Positions 2,876 to 48,682 of a stretch of 64,000 nucleotides of DNA are shown piece by piece. The notes beneath the pieces are model-generated. The model was not told the DNA's origin. It did not search any database and saw only the letters and a program-made list of their open reading frames with translations. The stretch is from Patescibacteria group bacterium. Its GTDB lineage: Bacteria; Patescibacteriota; JAQUNI01. A program made the position numbers and the translations under genes. The stretch covers positions 71,903 to 135,902 of the forward strand of contig JAQUNI010000002.1 in assembly GCA_028717685.1 (NCBI GenBank), written 5' to 3'. How positions within the stretch are numbered: position 1 is the stretch's first letter; each line of letters starts with the position of its first letter.

Positions 2876-5397
2876 TGAATGAAACTAATTTTTCCATCAT
2901 CTATCTTTTATGTGGGATGCTTTTTGTTCTATTGCTTATTTTGATTGCTTATTTTTTGATATTGAGCCAGCGTAAGAAATCCAAAGTGCCTAAGGCTTTC
3001 CAAACAACTTTGTTTTCAATTCGGGTGCCCAAAGAAATAGGCAAGGGGGAGAAAGAGGAAAAACAGGAAGAGAAGGAATTGATCGCGGTGGCGGAACAAG
3101 TGTTCGCCGGCTTCGCGCAACTCAATCGCATGAAAAAAGCCAAGCTTTGGGAGGAAAAAGATTTTGTTTCCTTGGAAATTGTGGCGCATCATAATGAAAC
3201 AAGTTTTTACGTTTGCTGTCCGAATAATCTGGTGGGGCTCGTGGAAAAACAAATCCAGGCGGCTTATCCCAGAGCCGAACTGGAAGAGATGAAGGAATAC
3301 AATTTTTATACTCCCGAGAGTGTGGTGCTCGCGACGAATATGGTTTTGGCGCGCGAAAACGTTTTTCCAATCAAGACTTACAAATACTTGGAAAATGATC
3401 CCCTTTCGGCTCTTGCTAATGCTTTAAGTAAGATGGGAGACCAAGAAGGAGGGGGTATAGAATTGATGATTCGTCCCGCTCCCAAAGGCTGGCAGACCAA
3501 GGGTCTTTCCGCGGCGCGCAAGATTCAGCAGGGCGTGAAAACCGCGGAGGCGGTGGGCGCGAAGGGCGTGGCAGGGAAGCTCGCACGCTTTGCCGGCGAG
3601 GTGGTGACGACAGCGGTTCAAGGAGCCGAGAAGAAGAAAAGAGCGCCGGAAGTGGAAGGGGAAAAACAGATTGAAGCGCCGCCTTCCTTAACCCCCCTGC
3701 AGCAGGAAACGGTAAAGCTTTTGGAAGAGAAAGCGAACAAGGTCGCTTTTGAAACCAATATTCGCTTGGCGGCCGCGAGTCCCACGCGCGAGCAAGCCGA
3801 GATTAAATTGTCCAATTTAATTAACGCTTTCCAGCAGTTTACTTACCCCGAATATAATAGTTTCAAGCCAGATAAGAATAAAAAATGGAGCGCCAAAAAA
3901 ACGATTACTAATTTTAACTTTCGTTTTTTTGATGAGGAAAAAGCGAGCATTTTAAATACCGAGGAGCTGGCGAGCATTTTTCATTTGCCTACGGCTTACA
4001 CCGAAACGCCAGAAGTGAAATGGCTTACCGCCAAGAAGGGCGAGGCGCCCGCCAATCTGCCCCAAGAAGGGATTGTGATTGGCAAGAATGTTTTTCGGGG
4101 CGTGGAGAGATTGGTGCGGATTCAAAGAGAAGATCGGCGCCGCCATTTGTATATTATTGGTCAGACCGGAACGGGCAAAACCACCTTGCTTAAAAATATG
4201 GTGGCGCAGGATTTGCAAAGCGGCGAGGGTGTTTGCGTGGTGGATCCCCATGGCGAACTCATTGAAGAATTATTAGGTCTTATGCCGAGAAACAGAGCAG
4301 AAGATGTCGTGGTTTTTGACCCGGGAGATATTGACCGCCCTTTAGGGCTTAATATGTTGGAGTACAACACGCCCGAACAGAAGGACTTTGTAGTTTCCGA
4401 GATGATTGCTATTTTCCATAAGCTTTTTCCGCCGGAGATTGTGGGTCCGATGTTTGAGCACAATATGCGCAATGTGATGCTGACCTTGATGGCGGATCCG
4501 GACAATCCAGGGACGATTACCGAGATTCCGCGGATGTTCACTGATCCGGAATATCAAAAATACAAGATCGCGAAAGTGACGGATACGGTGGTGCGCGATT
4601 TTTGGGAGAAGGAAATGGCAAAGACCACGGATTTTCATAAATCCGAAATGTTGGGCTATCTAATTTCCAAGATTGGGCAGTTTGTGGAGAATACGATGAT
4701 GCGCAATATTATCGGTCAGCAGCGCTCCGCCTTCAATCTCCGCGAGATTATGGACTCCGGCAAAATTTTACTCGTTAATCTGTCTAAAGGCAAAACCGGC
4801 GAGATTAATTCTTCGTTGCTCGGTCTCATCATTGTTTCTAAAATTCAGATGGCGGCAATGGGGCGGGTGGATATCCCCGAGGAAGAGCGGCGCGATTTTT
4901 ATCTTTACATTGATGAGTTCCAAAATTTCACCACGGATAGTATTATGACGATTTTGTCCGAAGCCCGCAAATACCGCCTGAATTTAACCCTCGCCAATCA
5001 ATATATCGCCCAGCTTCCGGAACAGATTCGCGACGCGGTTTTTGGCAATGTCGGCAGCCTTGCTTCTTTCCGGATCGGACCCAATGACGCCGAGTTTGTG
5101 GAAAAACAAACCGAGCCGGTTTTTTCTGCCCACGATTTAATCAATCTTGGCCAATTCCAAACCTATTTGAAACTTACTATAAATAATACGCCTTCCAAAG
5201 CCTTTAGTATGCAGACCTTGCCGCCCGAGCAAAAGCCTGACCGCGATTTGGCGCAAAGAATAAAAAATTTATCGCGCTTGAAATACGGCAAGGAGCGCGC
5301 GGAAGTGGAAGCGAAGACTATGGAGCAGCTTCAGCCGGAAATGGAACCAGGAAGTGGGGACCAGGAATCAGGAGGAATTATTAATTCTTCTGTTTAA
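2876..5397 (+). CDS. VirD4/TraG/TrwB-like coupling ATPase (T4SS DNA-transfer, AAA_10/DUF87-like) with N-terminal TM segment
   Basis: N-terminal hydrophobic helix, Walker A IIGQTGTGKTT, DPHGE, Walker B LYIDEFQNF. An upstream in-frame start at 2836 is possible. Confidence 0.6.
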
Positions 5398-12380: not shown

Positions 12381-12514
12381 CCCCGTTAGAAACATGCCCC
12401 GCCCCGTTAGAAAATTTTTTCTAACGGGGCACGCAGCTAGGCTAGCGGTTAATATAGAAATATAGATAACTCGTGCGGTTGGGCTTAATGCCCCGCACGA
12501 GTTTCTAACGGGGT
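12381..12514. repeat. REP-like hairpin repeat cluster (CCCCGTTAGAAA / TTCTAACGGGG) with outward sigma70-like promoter
   Basis: Perfect 13-bp inverted repeat CCCCGTTAGAAAA/TTTTCTAACGGGG, second TTCTAACGGGG at ~12503. Followed by TTGACA-16-TAAAAT. Confidence 0.6.
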
Positions 12515-13145: not shown

Positions 13146-13629
13146 TAAAAGCAGTGTCCACTATTACCCCTTCAAAGTAGCAATCATCAAAGCTCACAAA
13201 GAGCGATCCTCTTTGCGGTGCCTAGAGTGTACCCGAGCAGTTATCCTGCACAATTGGGATAGCAGGTGATTCGCCATGTTAAAGAACTTCGTTCTCTAAC
13301 GGGGTTTGCTGCTTTGGGCAGGTTCGCTAAAAAAGAAGTTTTTTCTTTTTATGAACCTGCCTTTTTATTTTTTAGTTGTGTTCCACACTTTATGTTTTAT
13401 CCACAGTTTTATTTGACAAATATTTTTCTTTTAATTAGACTATTAAAGGTATGAATAACCTCAAGTTTCAAAAATATATCCGCACCATTAAATCCGATTT
13501 TCTGGACCGGCTAGTTTTGTGATGTGAAAACACAAATTAATCGTGAAACTAGCTGGTCTTGAAAAACAAGACCAGTTTTATTTTGTTCATTTTCCGGAAT
13601 AATATAACAAATAGAAAGGAGGAAATGGG

Positions 13630-22340: not shown

Positions 22341-22436
22341 AGCCAGGTTTTGAACCAGTTTTAAAAACTTTTCAAAAACAAAAATCTTGTCCCCCGTGAG
22401 GGACAAGATTTTTTATCTTATTGAAGTTCTGATAGA

Positions 22437-22972: not shown

Positions 22973-23680
22973 TTACTGCATTTCAAGATAATGTTGAATG
23001 CTTTTGCGGCAGCCGTCAGCTAAGTCAAGTTTTAATGCCTTTTCTGGCAGCACCCATTTAGCTTTGGATAATTCGTTTTTCTCTAATTTCAGTTTGCCCC
23101 TGACAAATTCAAAGAGACAATCATAATAAACAACATGGCTGGGACGGTGAAAATCCGGAGAGTTAATAAGTTCGTTGGAATCAATAATCTTAATTGGTTT
23201 TACTTTAAGACCTGTTTCTTCTTCCGCTTCTCTTTGCGCGCTAGCTAAGAGATTTTCGCCGGGCTCCAAATGGCCGCCGGGGAGAGTCCATTTGTTTGAC
23301 CATTTGGGCGAGCGGGCAATCAGGATTTCGCCCTTTTTATTTTTGATAATTGCCGTATTAACTATTTCTACGCCGCGGGGGAAATGATGATGCGAAGACA
23401 CAAGATTTTGCGTTTTCGCGAGTTCAAATTGAATGATTTGCAGACCATATTTTTTAATTTCTGTTTCTGAATGGAAAGGCAAGCCTTTTGTTTTCAAGAC
23501 ATAGGTCGCGCGTGTTTTAATCTCGCGTCCGGTGTATTTTTGAGTCTTTGGATCCCATTCCGCAAGAAGTAAAATATCGCCTTCTTTGATTTTAAAATCC
23601 GCTAAGCGCAATTCAAATTTTTTTCTGCCGCTCGCGATTTTTTCAAAATACGCTGGCCATGTTTTCTTTTTGATGGTCAT
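22973..23680 (-). CDS. DUF3850/ASCH-like domain fused to NUDIX hydrolase
   Basis: N-terminal YFEKIASGRKKFELRLADFKIKEGDILLL (DUF3850); C-terminal NUDIX box GGHLEPGENLLASAQREAEEETGL. Confidence 0.65.
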   Translation of the reverse strand: MTIKKKTWPAYFEKIASGRKKFELRLADFKIKEGDILLLAEWDPKTQKYTGREIKTRATYVLKTKGLPFHSETEIKKYGLQIIQFELAKTQNLVSSHHHFPRGVEIVNTAIIKNKKGEILIARSPKWSNKWTLPGGHLEPGENLLASAQREAEEETGLKVKPIKIIDSNELINSPDFHRPSHVVYYDCLFEFVRGKLKLEKNELSKAKWVLPEKALKLDLADGCRKSIQHYLEMQ

Positions 23681-23684
23681 AGGA

Positions 23685-24272
23685 TTAAATATATAAATTT
23701 TCTATGTTATTTCTATCCTTTTTCCAGTTCGGGGGATTGTCAATAATATATTCTTGAATTTGTTGCAGGGCGTGTTCATTACGAATAATGTGGTCATAGA
23801 AACGGGATTGTCATTGAAAATGTAGATGATTTTGATATTTGTTAATTTCACGTGTGCAAATTGATTTGTATGAACGAATAATAACCGATAGCGATTGTGG
23901 CTTGGGTGATATCATAGACATTTGGTAATTTTTTGGACGTTGTTTATTCCTATGGTAGAGACGTTGCATTGCAACGTCTCTACGCGGATTATTATAATAA
24001 TTGTGGTTGATTATAATAATCCCATGCATATGGTTCGGCATCACAATATATTCGTCCAAAATCGCAAACGGAAAATGTTTGGGAATTTCTCGCCAATATT
24101 TATCCACAACGATTCCTATTCTGGATAATTGTATTACATTATTAATGACCTGGCCAAAGCATTCTTTCCGCTCTTTTGTGCAAACGGTCACGAAATACGC
24201 TCCTTCCATTGAATAATCATATTCTTGCAGTCTGGCCGATTCTGCGCGGAATTTATCTTGAAATAATACCAT
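23685..24272 (-). pseudogene. REP-associated tyrosine transposase (RAYT, Y1 HuH) interrupted by an in-frame TGA at 23811-23813
   Basis: N-terminal ORF (23811-24272) has YFVTVCTKERKECFG and MPNHMHGIII (HuH). After the TGA the same frame continues QSRFYDHIIRNEHALQQIQEYIIDNPPNW (catalytic-Tyr motif) to a TAA at 23685-23687. The TGA sits where RAYTs have a conserved Trp (WQRxFYDH). Confidence 0.65.
23955..23983. repeat. 29-bp perfect palindrome GTAGAGACGTTGCATTGCAACGTCTCTAC (inside RAYT coding sequence)
   Basis: Read directly; encodes RRDVAMQRLY in the RAYT frame. A near-identical copy is at 25007-25031. Confidence 0.8.
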
Positions 24273-24313
24273 TTATTTGATTAGAATTTGCGTTTCATTT
24301 TCCTGACCGTTTA

Positions 24314-24373
24314 CCTCGTTAGAGAAAACCACAGTCAGTGGAAACCGTTGGAGAACGAAGTTCTCTAATGGGG
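24314..24373. repeat. REP-like hairpin (CCTCGTTAGAGAA ... GTTCTCTAATGGGG) immediately 5' of the RAYT gene
   Basis: Inverted repeat arms with a ~35-nt loop. Same family as 12381-12514, 48417-48493 and 39404-39470. Confidence 0.6.
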
Positions 24374-24374
24374 T

Positions 24375-24992
24375 TTATATTTTCCGCACAAAATAGCAAA
24401 GCCAATTTGTATCTTCTTCTTGATGAATATGGTTTCTTAAAATTTTAAATCCATTCTGTTCTAGAATTTTTTGGAATTCTACTTTAGTGTAAAAAGCGAA
24501 ATACCGTTCAATCCCGCCGTGTTTTTTTTCTTTGATGATGCCCTCGTCAAGATGTCTTTTTTCTTTGAGGGCGATAAATCCTATGCCTTGGGATTTGATA
24601 ATTTTTCTGATGGCGCGGAGGACCTTGGCGACGCGGCGTTTGGGGATATGCAGGAGGGAAGCAGCAGCCCAAAAGCCGTCAAAATGATTCTGGGGAAATT
24701 TCAATTTGTAGAAATTCATCAAAATAAATTTGCCGCTTTTTACGAACTTGCGCGCTTCGTGAAGCAATCCAGAAGAGGCATCAATGCCAATATAATCAAA
24801 TTTGTTCTTTATAAACAGCAATGCATCTTTGCCTGACCCGCATCCAATGTCTATAACCCTTTTCCCCGAAATCAATTTTTGAAAAATTTTAAATTCCCTG
24901 TGCCAAAAAAGCGGGTTATTATAACCGCGGGCGGCATATTCTTTGGCGATTTTATTGTATGTTTTAATTGTTCTTTGACTAGGGTTCAACAT
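24375..24992 (-). CDS. class I SAM-dependent methyltransferase
   Basis: VIDIGCGSGKD (motif I), GIDAS. Start taken at MLNPSQ; the track N-terminal extension reads through the palindrome. Confidence 0.7.
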   Translation of the reverse strand: MLNPSQRTIKTYNKIAKEYAARGYNNPLFWHREFKIFQKLISGKRVIDIGCGSGKDALLFIKNKFDYIGIDASSGLLHEARKFVKSGKFILMNFYKLKFPQNHFDGFWAAASLLHIPKRRVAKVLRAIRKIIKSQGIGFIALKEKRHLDEGIIKEKKHGGIERYFAFYTKVEFQKILEQNGFKILRNHIHQEEDTNWLCYFVRKI

Positions 24993-25006
24993 ATATATTG
25001 CCGCAT

Positions 25007-25031
25007 AGAGACGTTGCATTGCAATGTCTCT
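25007..25031. repeat. second copy of the AGAGACGTTGCATTGCAA(C/T)GTCTCT palindrome
   Basis: One mismatch relative to copy 1. Lies between the methyltransferase start and the CYTH gene stop. Confidence 0.75.
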
Positions 25032-25036
25032 GCCAA

Positions 25037-25603
25037 TCATTTCATTTTTTTTAAAAGCAAAACCGGGTATCCAGTTTTAATCTGTTGTTTTTGCCAATCT
25101 TTGATTCCTAATTTTTGGGTTAAAAAGCGAGCACAACCCGCTCTTGCTATTTTAGCATTTAAAAAATTGCCTTGGGCTTCCACTTCTATGAAAAAGCCGA
25201 GATTTTTGACTTGATCCAAAGCAATTTCGAAATCTTCACATTGCCAATATTCTCTTTGTTTATCAACAGTGACGATTTTTTTGAAATCCAAAAATTTTAG
25301 AATTTTTCTAAGGTTCTCGGGTTGTTTTACTTCTACTTCATATTCTTCAGCATAATCTTGGGCGCTATCTTTGCGGCAGACAATAGATTTGTCGTATTCA
25401 AAAATCGCGCTGTCGGGATTTTGCCTTACGCGGAGCCATTCAATGGGACAGGGTTTGCGCGCGAAAAAATCGCGGTGGCAGGGGACATAATATTCATCAA
25501 TTTGGCGCAGAGATTTTTTTAGACTGCCTCCAAGAGTCCTTAATTTTTTGCGCGCCATCTCCAGATTGTCAAATTGAATTTTGATTTCCACTTCAATATT
25601 CAT
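25037..25603 (-). CDS. CYTH-domain protein (CyaB-like class IV adenylate cyclase / triphosphate tunnel metalloenzyme)
   Basis: Starts NIEVEIKIQF (EXEXK signature). ~188 aa. Start taken at the internal Met. Confidence 0.55.
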   Translation of the reverse strand: MNIEVEIKIQFDNLEMARKKLRTLGGSLKKSLRQIDEYYVPCHRDFFARKPCPIEWLRVRQNPDSAIFEYDKSIVCRKDSAQDYAEEYEVEVKQPENLRKILKFLDFKKIVTVDKQREYWQCEDFEIALDQVKNLGFFIEVEAQGNFLNAKIARAGCARFLTQKLGIKDWQKQQIKTGYPVLLLKKMK

Positions 25604-47815: not shown

Positions 47816-48415
47816 ATGGAAGCGAAAGCGAAACTTAGATATTTACATATTGCGCCGCGTAAGGTAAGATTGGTTATTAATTTAATTCGCGGCTTAGAAG
47901 TGGGCAGAGCCTTGGAACAACTTTCTGTAATAAAGCAAAGGGCGGCAAGGCCAGTGTTTAAACTGTTAAAGTCGGCTATTGCGAACGCGGAGCACAATTT
48001 TAACTTAGATAAGAATAATTTATATATCAAAGAAATTCGGGCAGATGAAGGACCAACTTTAAAGCGTTGGCAGCCGCGGGCCTTTGGCCGCGCTTTTCCT
48101 ATAATGAAGAGAGCGAGCCACATATCCATTATTTTAGAGGAAAGGGTTGTTGGTCGCAGAAAGACTAAGTCAGGAGGAGAAGCTCCCGAGCTTATTGCCA
48201 GCCCTAAGATGGCAGGAAAGAGCGCGTTGAAGGTTGGGAAGAGCAGAGTTGTGCCCACTCCGAAGATACCGCAGGGCAGCGAGACAACCCTGAAACCATG
48301 GGATCCTCGCCGAGAAGCCGGTCGCCGAAACAAGCAACATCAGGATAAGAAGAAACTAGCTCAAGGCAAAGCTTTGAGCGGTCTTAAACGTTTTTTCCAA
48401 CGTAAATCGGTGTAA
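47816..48415 (+). CDS. rplV: 50S ribosomal protein L22 (long basic C-terminal extension)
   Basis: MEAKAKLRYLHIAPRKVRLVINLIRG. The long antisense track ORF 47500-48333 is spurious. Confidence 0.9.
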   Translation: MEAKAKLRYLHIAPRKVRLVINLIRGLEVGRALEQLSVIKQRAARPVFKLLKSAIANAEHNFNLDKNNLYIKEIRADEGPTLKRWQPRAFGRAFPIMKRASHISIILEERVVGRRKTKSGGEAPELIASPKMAGKSALKVGKSRVVPTPKIPQGSETTLKPWDPRREAGRRNKQHQDKKKLAQGKALSGLKRFFQRKSV

Positions 48416-48416
48416 A

Positions 48417-48493
48417 CCCCTTTAGAGAACTTTGTTTTCTAACGGTTCTCTCGGCTTATATTCTGCCTGCCGTCAAGCAGGTCTCTAACGGGG
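48417..48493. repeat. REP-like hairpin (CCCCTTTAGAGAAC ... GTCTCTAACGGGG)
   Basis: Same arms as 24314-24373 and 12381-12514. Sits between rplV and rpsC. Confidence 0.6.
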
Positions 48494-48682
48494 TAAAATG
48501 GAGCCCTTCAGGTTGTTCAGGTCGTTCAGACTCTTAAAGAGCTCAAAGAGCTCTGAGAATGACCCCTTTTCAAATCCTTCGCGAGAGGCTGATTTGCGAA
48601 GAGCTCCAAATATAGGACATGAGTCATGAAGCCTGAAACGGGTAAAGTTATAAGTTTAATGTTTTAAGTTTTAAGCAAGCAT

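Follow-up and report, generated by a model that had tools for sequence, protein, structure and literature searches.

The locus considered here raises a simple question: what does an in-frame TGA mean when it falls on a tryptophan codon that is conserved throughout a transposase family? The gene in question encodes a RAYT-type Y1 transposase and belongs to an uncultured Patescibacteria MAG. The window, meaning the whole 64-kb stretch of DNA that was analysed, is ordinary chromosome. It encodes EF-G, SecY, adenylate kinase, ComEC and a P-type ATPase, and it holds one RAYT copy. The original prediction offered two readings of the TGA, either a recent pseudogenisation by a TGG-to-TGA change or a transposase controlled by readthrough. 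As described below, the gene most probably carries a recent, real nonsense mutation, and would then be a young or nascent pseudogene or at most a hypomorph.

Translation of positions 23681-24272 places the gene on the minus strand, which corrects the strand on which it was first described. The open reading frame extends from an ATG at 24272 to the TGA at 23813-23811, which is codon 154. The 153 codons before the stop (MVLFQD...NHLHFQ) are followed by 41 codons in the same frame, QSRFYDHIIRNEHALQQIQEYIIDNPPNWKKDRNNIENLYI, with no frameshift and no second stop before a TAA at 23687-23685. When the two halves are joined, the full product is 195 amino acids long. Only four nucleotides (TCCT) separate this TAA from the ATG at 23680 of a DUF3850-NUDIX gene, and the same arrangement of RAYT TAA and NUDIX gene is found on a contig from a sister strain (L001). 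The prediction of 153 N-terminal codons and of a continuing frame that ends 4 nt before the NUDIX start is therefore borne out by translation. The sequence around the stop reads ...CATTTTCAATGACAATCCCGTTTC..., such that the base 3' of the TGA is a C (TGA-CAA). Both of the remaining Trp codons in the gene are TGG. The parts of the gene that are referred to below are as follows.

23814-24272, minus strand: RAYT/TnpA_REP codons 1-153, the N-terminal HuH part as translated under the standard code (open reading frame list, Pfam Y1_Tnp, Y1 fold).
24024-24032, minus strand: HuH motif, codons 81-83 (H-M-H in MPNHMHGI), with invariant H81 and H83 and aligned with the HMH of 4ER8.
23811-23813, minus strand: in-frame TGA, codon 154, at the conserved Trp of the WQ motif (W in 16/16 aligned homologues; aligned with W94 of 4ER8).
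23688-23810, minus strand: codons 155-195, comprising the W-motif strand (QSRFYDHII) and helix alpha-D (homologue alignment, 4ER8 alignment, model).
23748-23750, minus strand: Y175 codon; this residue, in EYIIDNP, is predicted to be the catalytic tyrosine by alignment with Y115 of 4ER8.
23685-23687, minus strand: TAA that closes the full-length RAYT frame, from translation.

No ATG, GTG or TTG occurs in frame after the TGA. The C-terminal part of the protein would therefore be obtainable solely by readthrough, and separate translation of this part is rejected for want of any such codon.

Several comparisons assign the joined frame to the RAYT family. With Trp placed at the stop, the 195-residue protein scores 28.4 bits against the Pfam Y1_Tnp model (PF01797; cutoff 23 bits), and the 153-residue fragment alone falls under the cutoff at 19.8 bits. 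The best-matched stretch, residues 122-177, crosses the stop. Among NCBIfam models, the equivalog REP_Tyr_transpos (NF047646) is by far the top match, with a score of 62 bits that lies below its cutoff of 80; the IS200 model reaches only 15 bits. When 5.8 billion proteins were searched, 1477 relatives were recovered, and many of them are titled 'REP element-mobilizing transposase RayT'. In an alignment of 17 of these homologues (A1), the stop occupies a column of nearly invariant Trp followed by Gln, and there is no variation at H81, H83, Y175 or N179.

A sequence-profile search recovered a single solved structure, that of E. coli TnpA_REP (PDB 4ER8; E 6e-7). Its alignment to the RAYT protein pairs W154 with W94, Y175 with Y115 and N179 with N119. 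In 4ER8, Y115 is the catalytic tyrosine, H59/M60/H61 form the HuH motif and N119 is a metal ligand (Messing et al. 2012, PMC3479197). Because Y175 aligns with Y115, the predicted nucleophile is Y175 in the EYIIDNP sequence, 21 residues beyond the stop, and not the tyrosine of RFYDH. The latter position varies between Y, H and W across homologues, unlike the invariant Y175. N179 is likewise predicted to be a metal ligand. The segment after the stop had been described as the catalytic-tyrosine block. This block does lie downstream of the TGA, but the WQxRF(Y/H/W)DH sequence singled out at the time corresponds to the W motif and the strand that follows it, with the nucleophile being assigned to Y175 instead.

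An AlphaFold model of the protein (pLDDT 73, pTM 0.70) has the Y1 fold. The top 30 Foldseek matches in the PDB are all IS608, IS200, ISDra2 or TnpA_REP transposases, with E values down to 3e-6. Past the stop, the model contains a strand (158-163) and a helix (166-178). Three features expected of a RAYT protein can be compared with this arrangement. The YIxxNP sequence that separates RAYTs from IS200 proteins (Y..NQ) is present as EYIIDNP. The W motif (WQ or WE) before the tyrosine helix lacks its Trp since the codon is TGA, and the catalytic tyrosine on helix alpha-D is absent from the translated product since Y175 sits after a TGA that is read as a stop. Because the Y1_Tnp match spans the stop, the stop falls on a near-invariant Trp and the codon is TGG in 79 of 80 homologous loci (see below), the block after the TGA is, on sequence comparison, clearly homologous to RAYT C-termini. 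The identification of a RAYT-type Y1 transposase with an in-frame TGA at its conserved Trp is upheld by the same observations, and the proposed alignment with other RAYTs gives the expected result. The 153-residue fragment would be incapable of DNA cleavage or of any active nuclease role, because the W-motif strand, helix alpha-D, Y175 and N179 are all located past the stop.

The gene also has a recognizable place within the family. TnpA_REP subclass 2.4 (Quentin et al. 2018, PMC6006769), which is group 4 of the RAYTs of Bertels et al. 2017, is defined by the motifs NH[IFV]H, WQ and YIxNNP, a mean length of 194 amino acids and a REP sequence within the gene; a motif table is given in the same study (PMC6006769). 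The corresponding features of the window gene are NHMH, (TGA)Q, YIIDNP and 195 amino acids, which is near to this definition and not exact. By its motifs, the gene thus probably belongs to subclass 2.4 (group 4), which it matches in the NHxH type of its HuH motif, the position of the WQ motif, the YIxxNP sequence and its length. A distribution over Bacteroidota, Cyanobacteria and various other phyla is a further point of likeness. It differs in having TGA for the Trp of WQ, Met as the middle residue of the HuH motif where the subclass has I, F or V, and a Patescibacteria MAG as its host. The E. coli protein (YafM, 4ER8) is a more distant relative that belongs to subclass 2.2 (group 2). It shares the Y1 HuH fold and the equivalents of W94, Y115 and N119 with the window protein. 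However, the two are only about 19% identical, and E. coli TnpA_REP has a C-terminal extension carrying E161 and lacks a REP-encoded loop, unlike the window protein.

The TGA is a real allele, and in this population it is the consensus. Two per-run Logan assemblies, SRR22315509 and SRR22315506 (contigs L103 and L104), were reached through the exact protein sequence of the neighbouring NUDIX gene. Both have the TGA, and neither differs from the window anywhere in the final 300 nt of the RAYT gene. A one-off assembly error is unlikely because two independent assemblies of the same strain repeat the TGA, and the sequencing error that had been named as a way to overturn the observation is correspondingly improbable.

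Comparison with the sister strain is informative about the age of the stop. The nearest protein homologue (P0001, 95% amino acid identity) is encoded on the syntenic contig L001 (RAYT-NUDIX-RRM) from SRR22387967. This copy has TGG at codon 154, one G/A difference from the window, which is the result anticipated when an inspection of sister genomes was proposed. Over the 41 codons after the TGA, the window and sister sequences differ with a dS of 0.42 and a dN of 0.041 (omega 0.10). The flanking genes have diverged by a dS of 0.36 (NUDIX) and 0.17 (RRM). The C-terminal part therefore appears to have been under purifying selection for essentially all of the time since the strains split, and this implies that the stop arose recently or, as the less parsimonious reading, that translation of the C-terminal part continues. 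The N-terminal part has a lower dS of 0.059 and a dN/dS of 0.35, a pattern that is taken up below.

Two further lines of evidence concern the status of the gene in this group. The genes that flank the RAYT gene carry the consecutive NCBI accessions MDD5627126 and MDD5627127. Because these accessions are consecutive, the RAYT gene was presumably issued no NCBI protein, as expected if it was flagged as a pseudogene. In addition, a close relative (L106, labelled Ca. Doudnabacteria) that differs by about 7% in the NUDIX and RRM genes has no RAYT gene. Its methyltransferase and NUDIX genes are 18 nt apart, and the segment corresponding to window positions 24372-23701, which contains a 66-nt MITE-like element and the RAYT gene, is missing. 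The RAYT gene is dispensable in this group, because this close relative lives without it. Strain variants could not be located by exact DNA patterns, which had no match in GTDB genomes or JGI metagenomes, and the 153-residue product has no record as a called gene; it was the NUDIX protein next door that led to such variants.

A broader view of this codon is provided by 80 RAYT loci from GTDB species representatives, of which 79 have TGG. In-frame stops occur in only two of these loci. One of them (L074) has four TGAs, none of which falls on a Trp codon. In the second (L017), which comes from a Ca. Uhrbacteria MAG whose long open reading frames otherwise look standard, a single TGA is found at the same Trp codon, again in the context TGA-CAA. 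A scan of 241 million metagenome records for TGA plus the motif gave 15 matches, eight of which are RAYT-like. Three of the eight are otherwise intact: L088, from TARA; L095, from a contig with approximately 2x coverage; and L097, whose sequence is identical to that of L017. The remaining five contigs represent four degraded elements (L089/L098, L091, L099 and L102), L089 and L098 being one degraded element seen in two samples. Among these metagenome matches there is no clade of diverged sequences that share the TGA; the cases are scattered, and about half are in degraded copies. When the 120 homologues nearest to the N-terminal 153 amino acids were examined, not one was truncated just before the Trp, and three were frameshifted or truncated elsewhere. 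A scan of viral contigs for the motif gave no matches.

The coincidence of stops on one codon can be evaluated by counting the routes to a stop. There are 99 one-step nonsense paths in the RAYT gene, of which 21 are transitions and only four are GC-to-AT transitions to TGA. The chance that the stop in the Ca. Uhrbacteria copy would fall on the same codon is approximately 1% if all 99 paths are equal and approximately 25% if only the latter four are available. Given AT-biased mutation, a second stop on this codon is only mildly surprising. Overall, the distribution is consistent with TGG-to-TGA mutations that arise sporadically across a very large family, with some copies seen early after mutation and some already decaying.

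These observations can be combined into the following explanation. A G-to-A transition at Trp-154 would have recently converted TGG to TGA and become fixed in this population. Translation would end after 153 residues to yield a HuH-only fragment that, with the W-motif strand, helix alpha-D, Y175 and N179 missing, would not cleave DNA. At most, low background misreading of UGA by tRNA-Trp(CCA) might produce trace amounts of a full-length protein whose sequence is wild type, which would make the allele a hypomorph. Any such leak would reflect the generic leakiness of UGA in a weak UGA-C context and not a programmed or regulatory device. The allele is probably young because the 41 downstream codons are intact and bear the mark of past purifying selection. 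The sequence itself, its homology, the use of TGA as a stop, the TGG of the sister strain, the recurrence of the TGA in independent assemblies and the lack of a stimulatory structure are direct observations; that activity is lost, that the mutation is young and that some readthrough may persist are inferred from them. The pseudogenisation that had been put forward as one of two readings agrees with the TGG of the sister strain, with an omega near 0.10 at a dS like that of the flanks and with the apparent lack of an NCBI protein. The locus also resembles ordinary nonsense pseudogenes of mobile-element genes in that it involves a single transition, an intact close relative, no issued protein and a dispensable gene. 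There is no substantive difference from such pseudogenes, except that background misreading restores the wild-type sequence after only one kind of nonsense change, namely UGA in place of a Trp codon.

Several points count against this explanation. The RAYT gene is otherwise flawless, and a gene with programmed readthrough would look alike. The stop in the Ca. Uhrbacteria copy is on the same codon, and L088 and L095 are also otherwise intact. Termination at UGA is, moreover, weak when a C comes next.

The first alternative to be considered is that the UGA is a selected, leaky stop. Low-level decoding by tRNA-Trp would keep the RAYT protein at a very low and non-toxic level, and the abundant 153-residue HuH fragment might exert regulation by binding REP sequences. 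A Trp codon is the one place where readthrough by the near-cognate tRNA-Trp restores the wild-type protein. Work in E. coli indicates that termination at UGA is weak when the next base is C. Endogenous tRNA-Trp gives background readthrough of UGA in E. coli (PMC13092985). The intact downstream frame with its omega of 0.10 and the independent, otherwise intact TGA copies at the same codon in L017, L088 and L095 could be accommodated in the same way. However, the stop is not conserved in orthologues as a functional stop should be: the sister strain and 79 of 80 homologues have TGG, no clade maintains the TGA, about half of the TGA cases are degraded and none of the 120 nearest N-terminal homologues ends here. 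Neither a stimulatory structure nor a special context was found. Over the 100 nt around and downstream of the TGA, the predicted minimum free energy is -4.5 kcal/mol, which is no better than that of shuffled sequences (z = +0.92), and there is no Rfam match in the TGA region. The C after the UGA is there because the conserved Gln codon (CAA or CAG) of the WQ dipeptide dictates it, and this context is therefore automatic. A leaky stop maintained by selection is improbable on this evidence, and the readthrough-controlled transposase of the original prediction gains no positive support from an unconserved stop, a region devoid of RNA structure, a window without a suppressor tRNA and homologues that never end at this point.

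Known examples of stop codon recoding provide a useful contrast. Phage Q-beta produces its A1 protein by programmed UGA readthrough in which Trp is inserted. To our knowledge, the stop is conserved in known cases of programmed UGA readthrough, and the extension is an added function. Decoding of UGA by tRNA-Trp would extend the RAYT product in a similar manner. In contrast to these systems, the RAYT stop falls in the middle of a conserved catalytic core, and neither the sister strain nor the family at large shares it. A selenoprotein, with UGA encoding Sec, was also considered and is rejected: there is no structure 3' of the UGA and no Rfam match, and the homologues have Trp at this position and not Cys.

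A related proposal is that TGA at the core Trp of RAYTs could be a recurrently tolerated 'dimmer' allele, in which misreading of UGA-C remakes the wild-type protein at a low percentage. If true, this would mean that lineages can throttle a domesticated nuclease without losing its gene. It would also explain the flawless TGA copies in at least four unrelated lineages, namely this MAG, the Ca. Uhrbacteria MAG, the TARA contig and one further metagenome contig. We regard this proposal as a long shot.

It is also conceivable that the truncation has been neofunctionalised. The product would then be a 153-residue, HuH-only binder of REP sequences or hairpins without nuclease activity, and the downstream part would be a decaying remnant. 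The N-terminal part is unusually conserved relative to the sister strain, with its dS of 0.059 to be set against 0.36-0.42 in the flanks, but its dN/dS of 0.35 is not especially low. Because of this ratio, the low divergence looks like the result of recent recombination and not of constraint. Moreover, the sister gene with a near-identical N-terminal part is full length, and the downstream part exhibits no decay. There is accordingly little to recommend this alternative, which is quite improbable.

Altered decoding would make the TGA effectively a sense codon. [quoted passage not shown] Reassignment of UGA to Trp has recently been reported in one family of Patescibacteriota, tRNA-Trp with a 4-bp stem is widespread (PMC13092985), and both the tRNA-Trp and the prfB genes of this MAG lie outside the 64-kb window. 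However, the RAYT gene is the only gene in the 64 kb with a mid-gene TGA; EF-G, SecY, the P-type ATPase and an 853-residue ATPase have none, and the longest genes (855, 795, 733 and 637 amino acids) are likewise free of internal TGA. TGA closes at least five genes (encoding a PIF1 helicase, ComEC, an M20 peptidase, an ABC-2 permease and adenylate kinase) at the point where the match to the Pfam profile stops, and the other Trp codons of the RAYT gene are TGG. TGA is a genuine stop in this genome because long genes lack it internally and profile-matched genes end with it. Genome-wide recoding, whether of UGA to Trp (table 4) or of UGA to Gly (table 25), is rejected for the same reasons, in agreement with the earlier argument that wholesale recoding is unlikely when the helicase and ComEC genes end in TGA. 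No suppressor tRNA is encoded within the 64-kb window, whose sole tRNA is tRNA-Pro. Altered decoding is very improbable, and nothing at the locus points to a departure from standard decoding in this Patescibacteria genome.

A sequencing or assembly artefact, with a true base of G and a codon of TGG, could be imagined from the single-base difference to the sister strain, the fact that consensus errors do occur in MAGs and the origin of another TGA case (L095) in a contig with approximately 2x coverage, but it is extremely unlikely given that the TGA is present in the window and in both per-run assemblies, which are otherwise identical over the region.

With a recent nonsense mutation as the preferred reading, the appropriate annotation for the locus is that of a RAYT (TnpA_REP subclass 2.4) pseudogene interrupted by a stop, and not that of a recoded or readthrough gene. 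Beyond correct annotation, the finding matters little. It does show, in a clean natural case, how RAYT decay begins, and both an allele that is intact in the sister strain and a relative without any RAYT are available for comparison. Since a UGA at a Trp codon is repaired by background misreading, alleles of this type may outlast other nonsense alleles.

The gene and its surroundings contain several repeats, including the palindromes with which RAYTs are associated.

23955-23983, either strand: perfect palindrome with arms of 14 + 14 bp, GTAGAGACGTTGCA-N-TGCAACGTCTCTAC, in the RAYT coding sequence (GTAG-tagged REP).
25005-25031, either strand: second copy of the REP palindrome with one mismatch, at the CYTH / methyltransferase junction, approximately 730 nt upstream of the RAYT gene.
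23986-24022, either strand: AT-rich perfect inverted repeat (I4) with 13-nt arms placed 11 nt apart, adjoining the REP inside the coding sequence.
24310-24375, minus strand: MITE-like element of 66 nt, bounded by the terminal inverted repeats ACCCCATTAGAGAA...TTCTCTAACGAGGT and located after the methyltransferase stop and before the RAYT start.

Copies related to the MITE-like element occur at other sites of the window and also in L106, and a terminator-like hairpin is located within it at 24345-24371. Within the one 64-kb window, the RAYT gene is associated with GTAG-tagged REP sequences (GTAGAGAC...GTCTCTAC), and one of these resides inside the gene, as the definition of subclass 2.4 calls for. 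The whole gene-internal palindrome, GTAGAGACGTTGCAATGCAACGTCTCTAC, encodes RRDVAMQRLY. The loop that it specifies, residues 94-109, is predicted to be disordered in the AlphaFold model.

Gene-internal palindromes of this kind are common in the family. A perfect example is found in 68 of 91 RAYT family genes, including the window gene, mostly near relative position 0.5, and nearly all of the 68 have stems of at least 9 bp. The GTAGAGAC/GTAGGGAC foot is kept, and the inner stem varies with full compensation. The possibility that a gene-internal palindrome with such compensatory variation is new was considered and rejected, as insertion of REP sequences inside tnpAREP genes has already been described for subclass 2.4 (PMC6006769). 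Across the family, the internal REP is read in at least two frames, to encode either RDVAMQRLY or ETLQCNVST.

The RAYT gene, whose conserved Trp codon 154 is an in-frame TGA in the window, has diverged unevenly from its counterpart at the syntenic sister-strain locus L001. Across the N-terminal two-thirds of the gene (window 23814-24252), dS between the two is 0.059, with 8 differences in 396 nt. The values are much higher elsewhere, reaching 0.42 in the part of the RAYT that follows the TGA, 0.36 in the NUDIX gene and 0.17 in the RRM gene. The switch from low to high divergence is located no more than ~20 nt from the TGA, and upstream of codon 8 the homology with L001 stops abruptly. Together, the dS contrast, the position of the switch and the abrupt end of homology in these alignments suggest that the 5' part of the RAYT is covered by a recent recombination or gene-conversion tract.

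Independent, otherwise intact RAYTs also carry TGA at this Trp codon.

RAYTs with TGA at the same Trp codon
L017 (= L097), 3517-3519: Ca. Uhrbacteria MAG (UBA12432)
L088: TARA Oceans contig
L095: low-coverage ENA contig

L074, from a MAG with the label Ca. Peribacteria, carries a RAYT (3001-3540) containing four in-frame TGAs, none of them at a Trp position; in the window protein, the aligned residues are E17, Q126, S137 and L169. These codons reflect either a recoded genome that reads TGA as sense or a decayed gene copy.

In L106, a close relative labelled Ca. Doudnabacteria with ~7% nucleotide divergence from the window, the RAYT is absent, and the methyltransferase and NUDIX genes are separated by 18 nt (L106 2984-3000). 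A segment of 672 nt (window 23701-24372) is common to the window and L001 and is absent from L106. Similar short repeats border this segment, GGAAAATATAAAC on the left and AGAAAATTTATATAT on the right. The difference is either a gain or a loss of the segment; the three taxa compared are too few to polarise it.

REP insertion inside the gene is already known for subclass 2.4, the TnpA_REP subclass of this RAYT (PMC6006769). The mid-gene REP covaries across phyla in a textbook pattern (loci L008-L087, L001-L007 and L088). Its outer clamp, GTAGAGAC/GTCTCTAC, is kept across RAYT loci, and its inner stem is fully swapped between them (GTTGCA/TGCAAC, GCAAAA/TTTTGC, GCCCAA/TTGGGC, CTTCCA/TGGAAG and others). 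The longest gene-internal stems at these loci are 28 bp, and additional copies of the REP arms flank many RAYT loci. De Bruijn assemblies are broken by the REP within the gene; position 1 of both L103 and L104, Logan contigs of the window's own strain, is exactly the internal palindrome (window ~23983). Adjoining the REP inside the coding sequence is a perfect AT-rich inverted repeat of 13 nt, GGATTATTATAAT ... ATTATAATAATCC, 11 nt apart (window 23986-24022), which may belong to a compound ('double foot') REP.

Small repeats of a second family carry the terminal inverted repeats ACCCC(A/G)TTAGAGAA...TTCTCTAACG(A/G)GGT.

Copies of the terminal-inverted-repeat family
window 24310-24375: directly upstream of the RAYT
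window 48413-48498: further copy
window 13279-13307: further copy
window 12403-12429: further copy
L106 2505-2613: ~110 nt, within the methyltransferase gene

The L106 copy keeps the methyltransferase frame and adds ~37 residues.

In the window, the first residues of the longest methyltransferase open reading frame (25005-25040), MIGRDIAMQRLY, are the extragenic REP copy read as codons. The gene probably starts further downstream, since the NCBI record gives 214 aa versus 221 aa for this reading frame. The RRM and P-type ATPase genes converge on a perfect 14-bp hairpin with A/T runs on both sides (window 22380-22413), which looks like a bidirectional intrinsic terminator.
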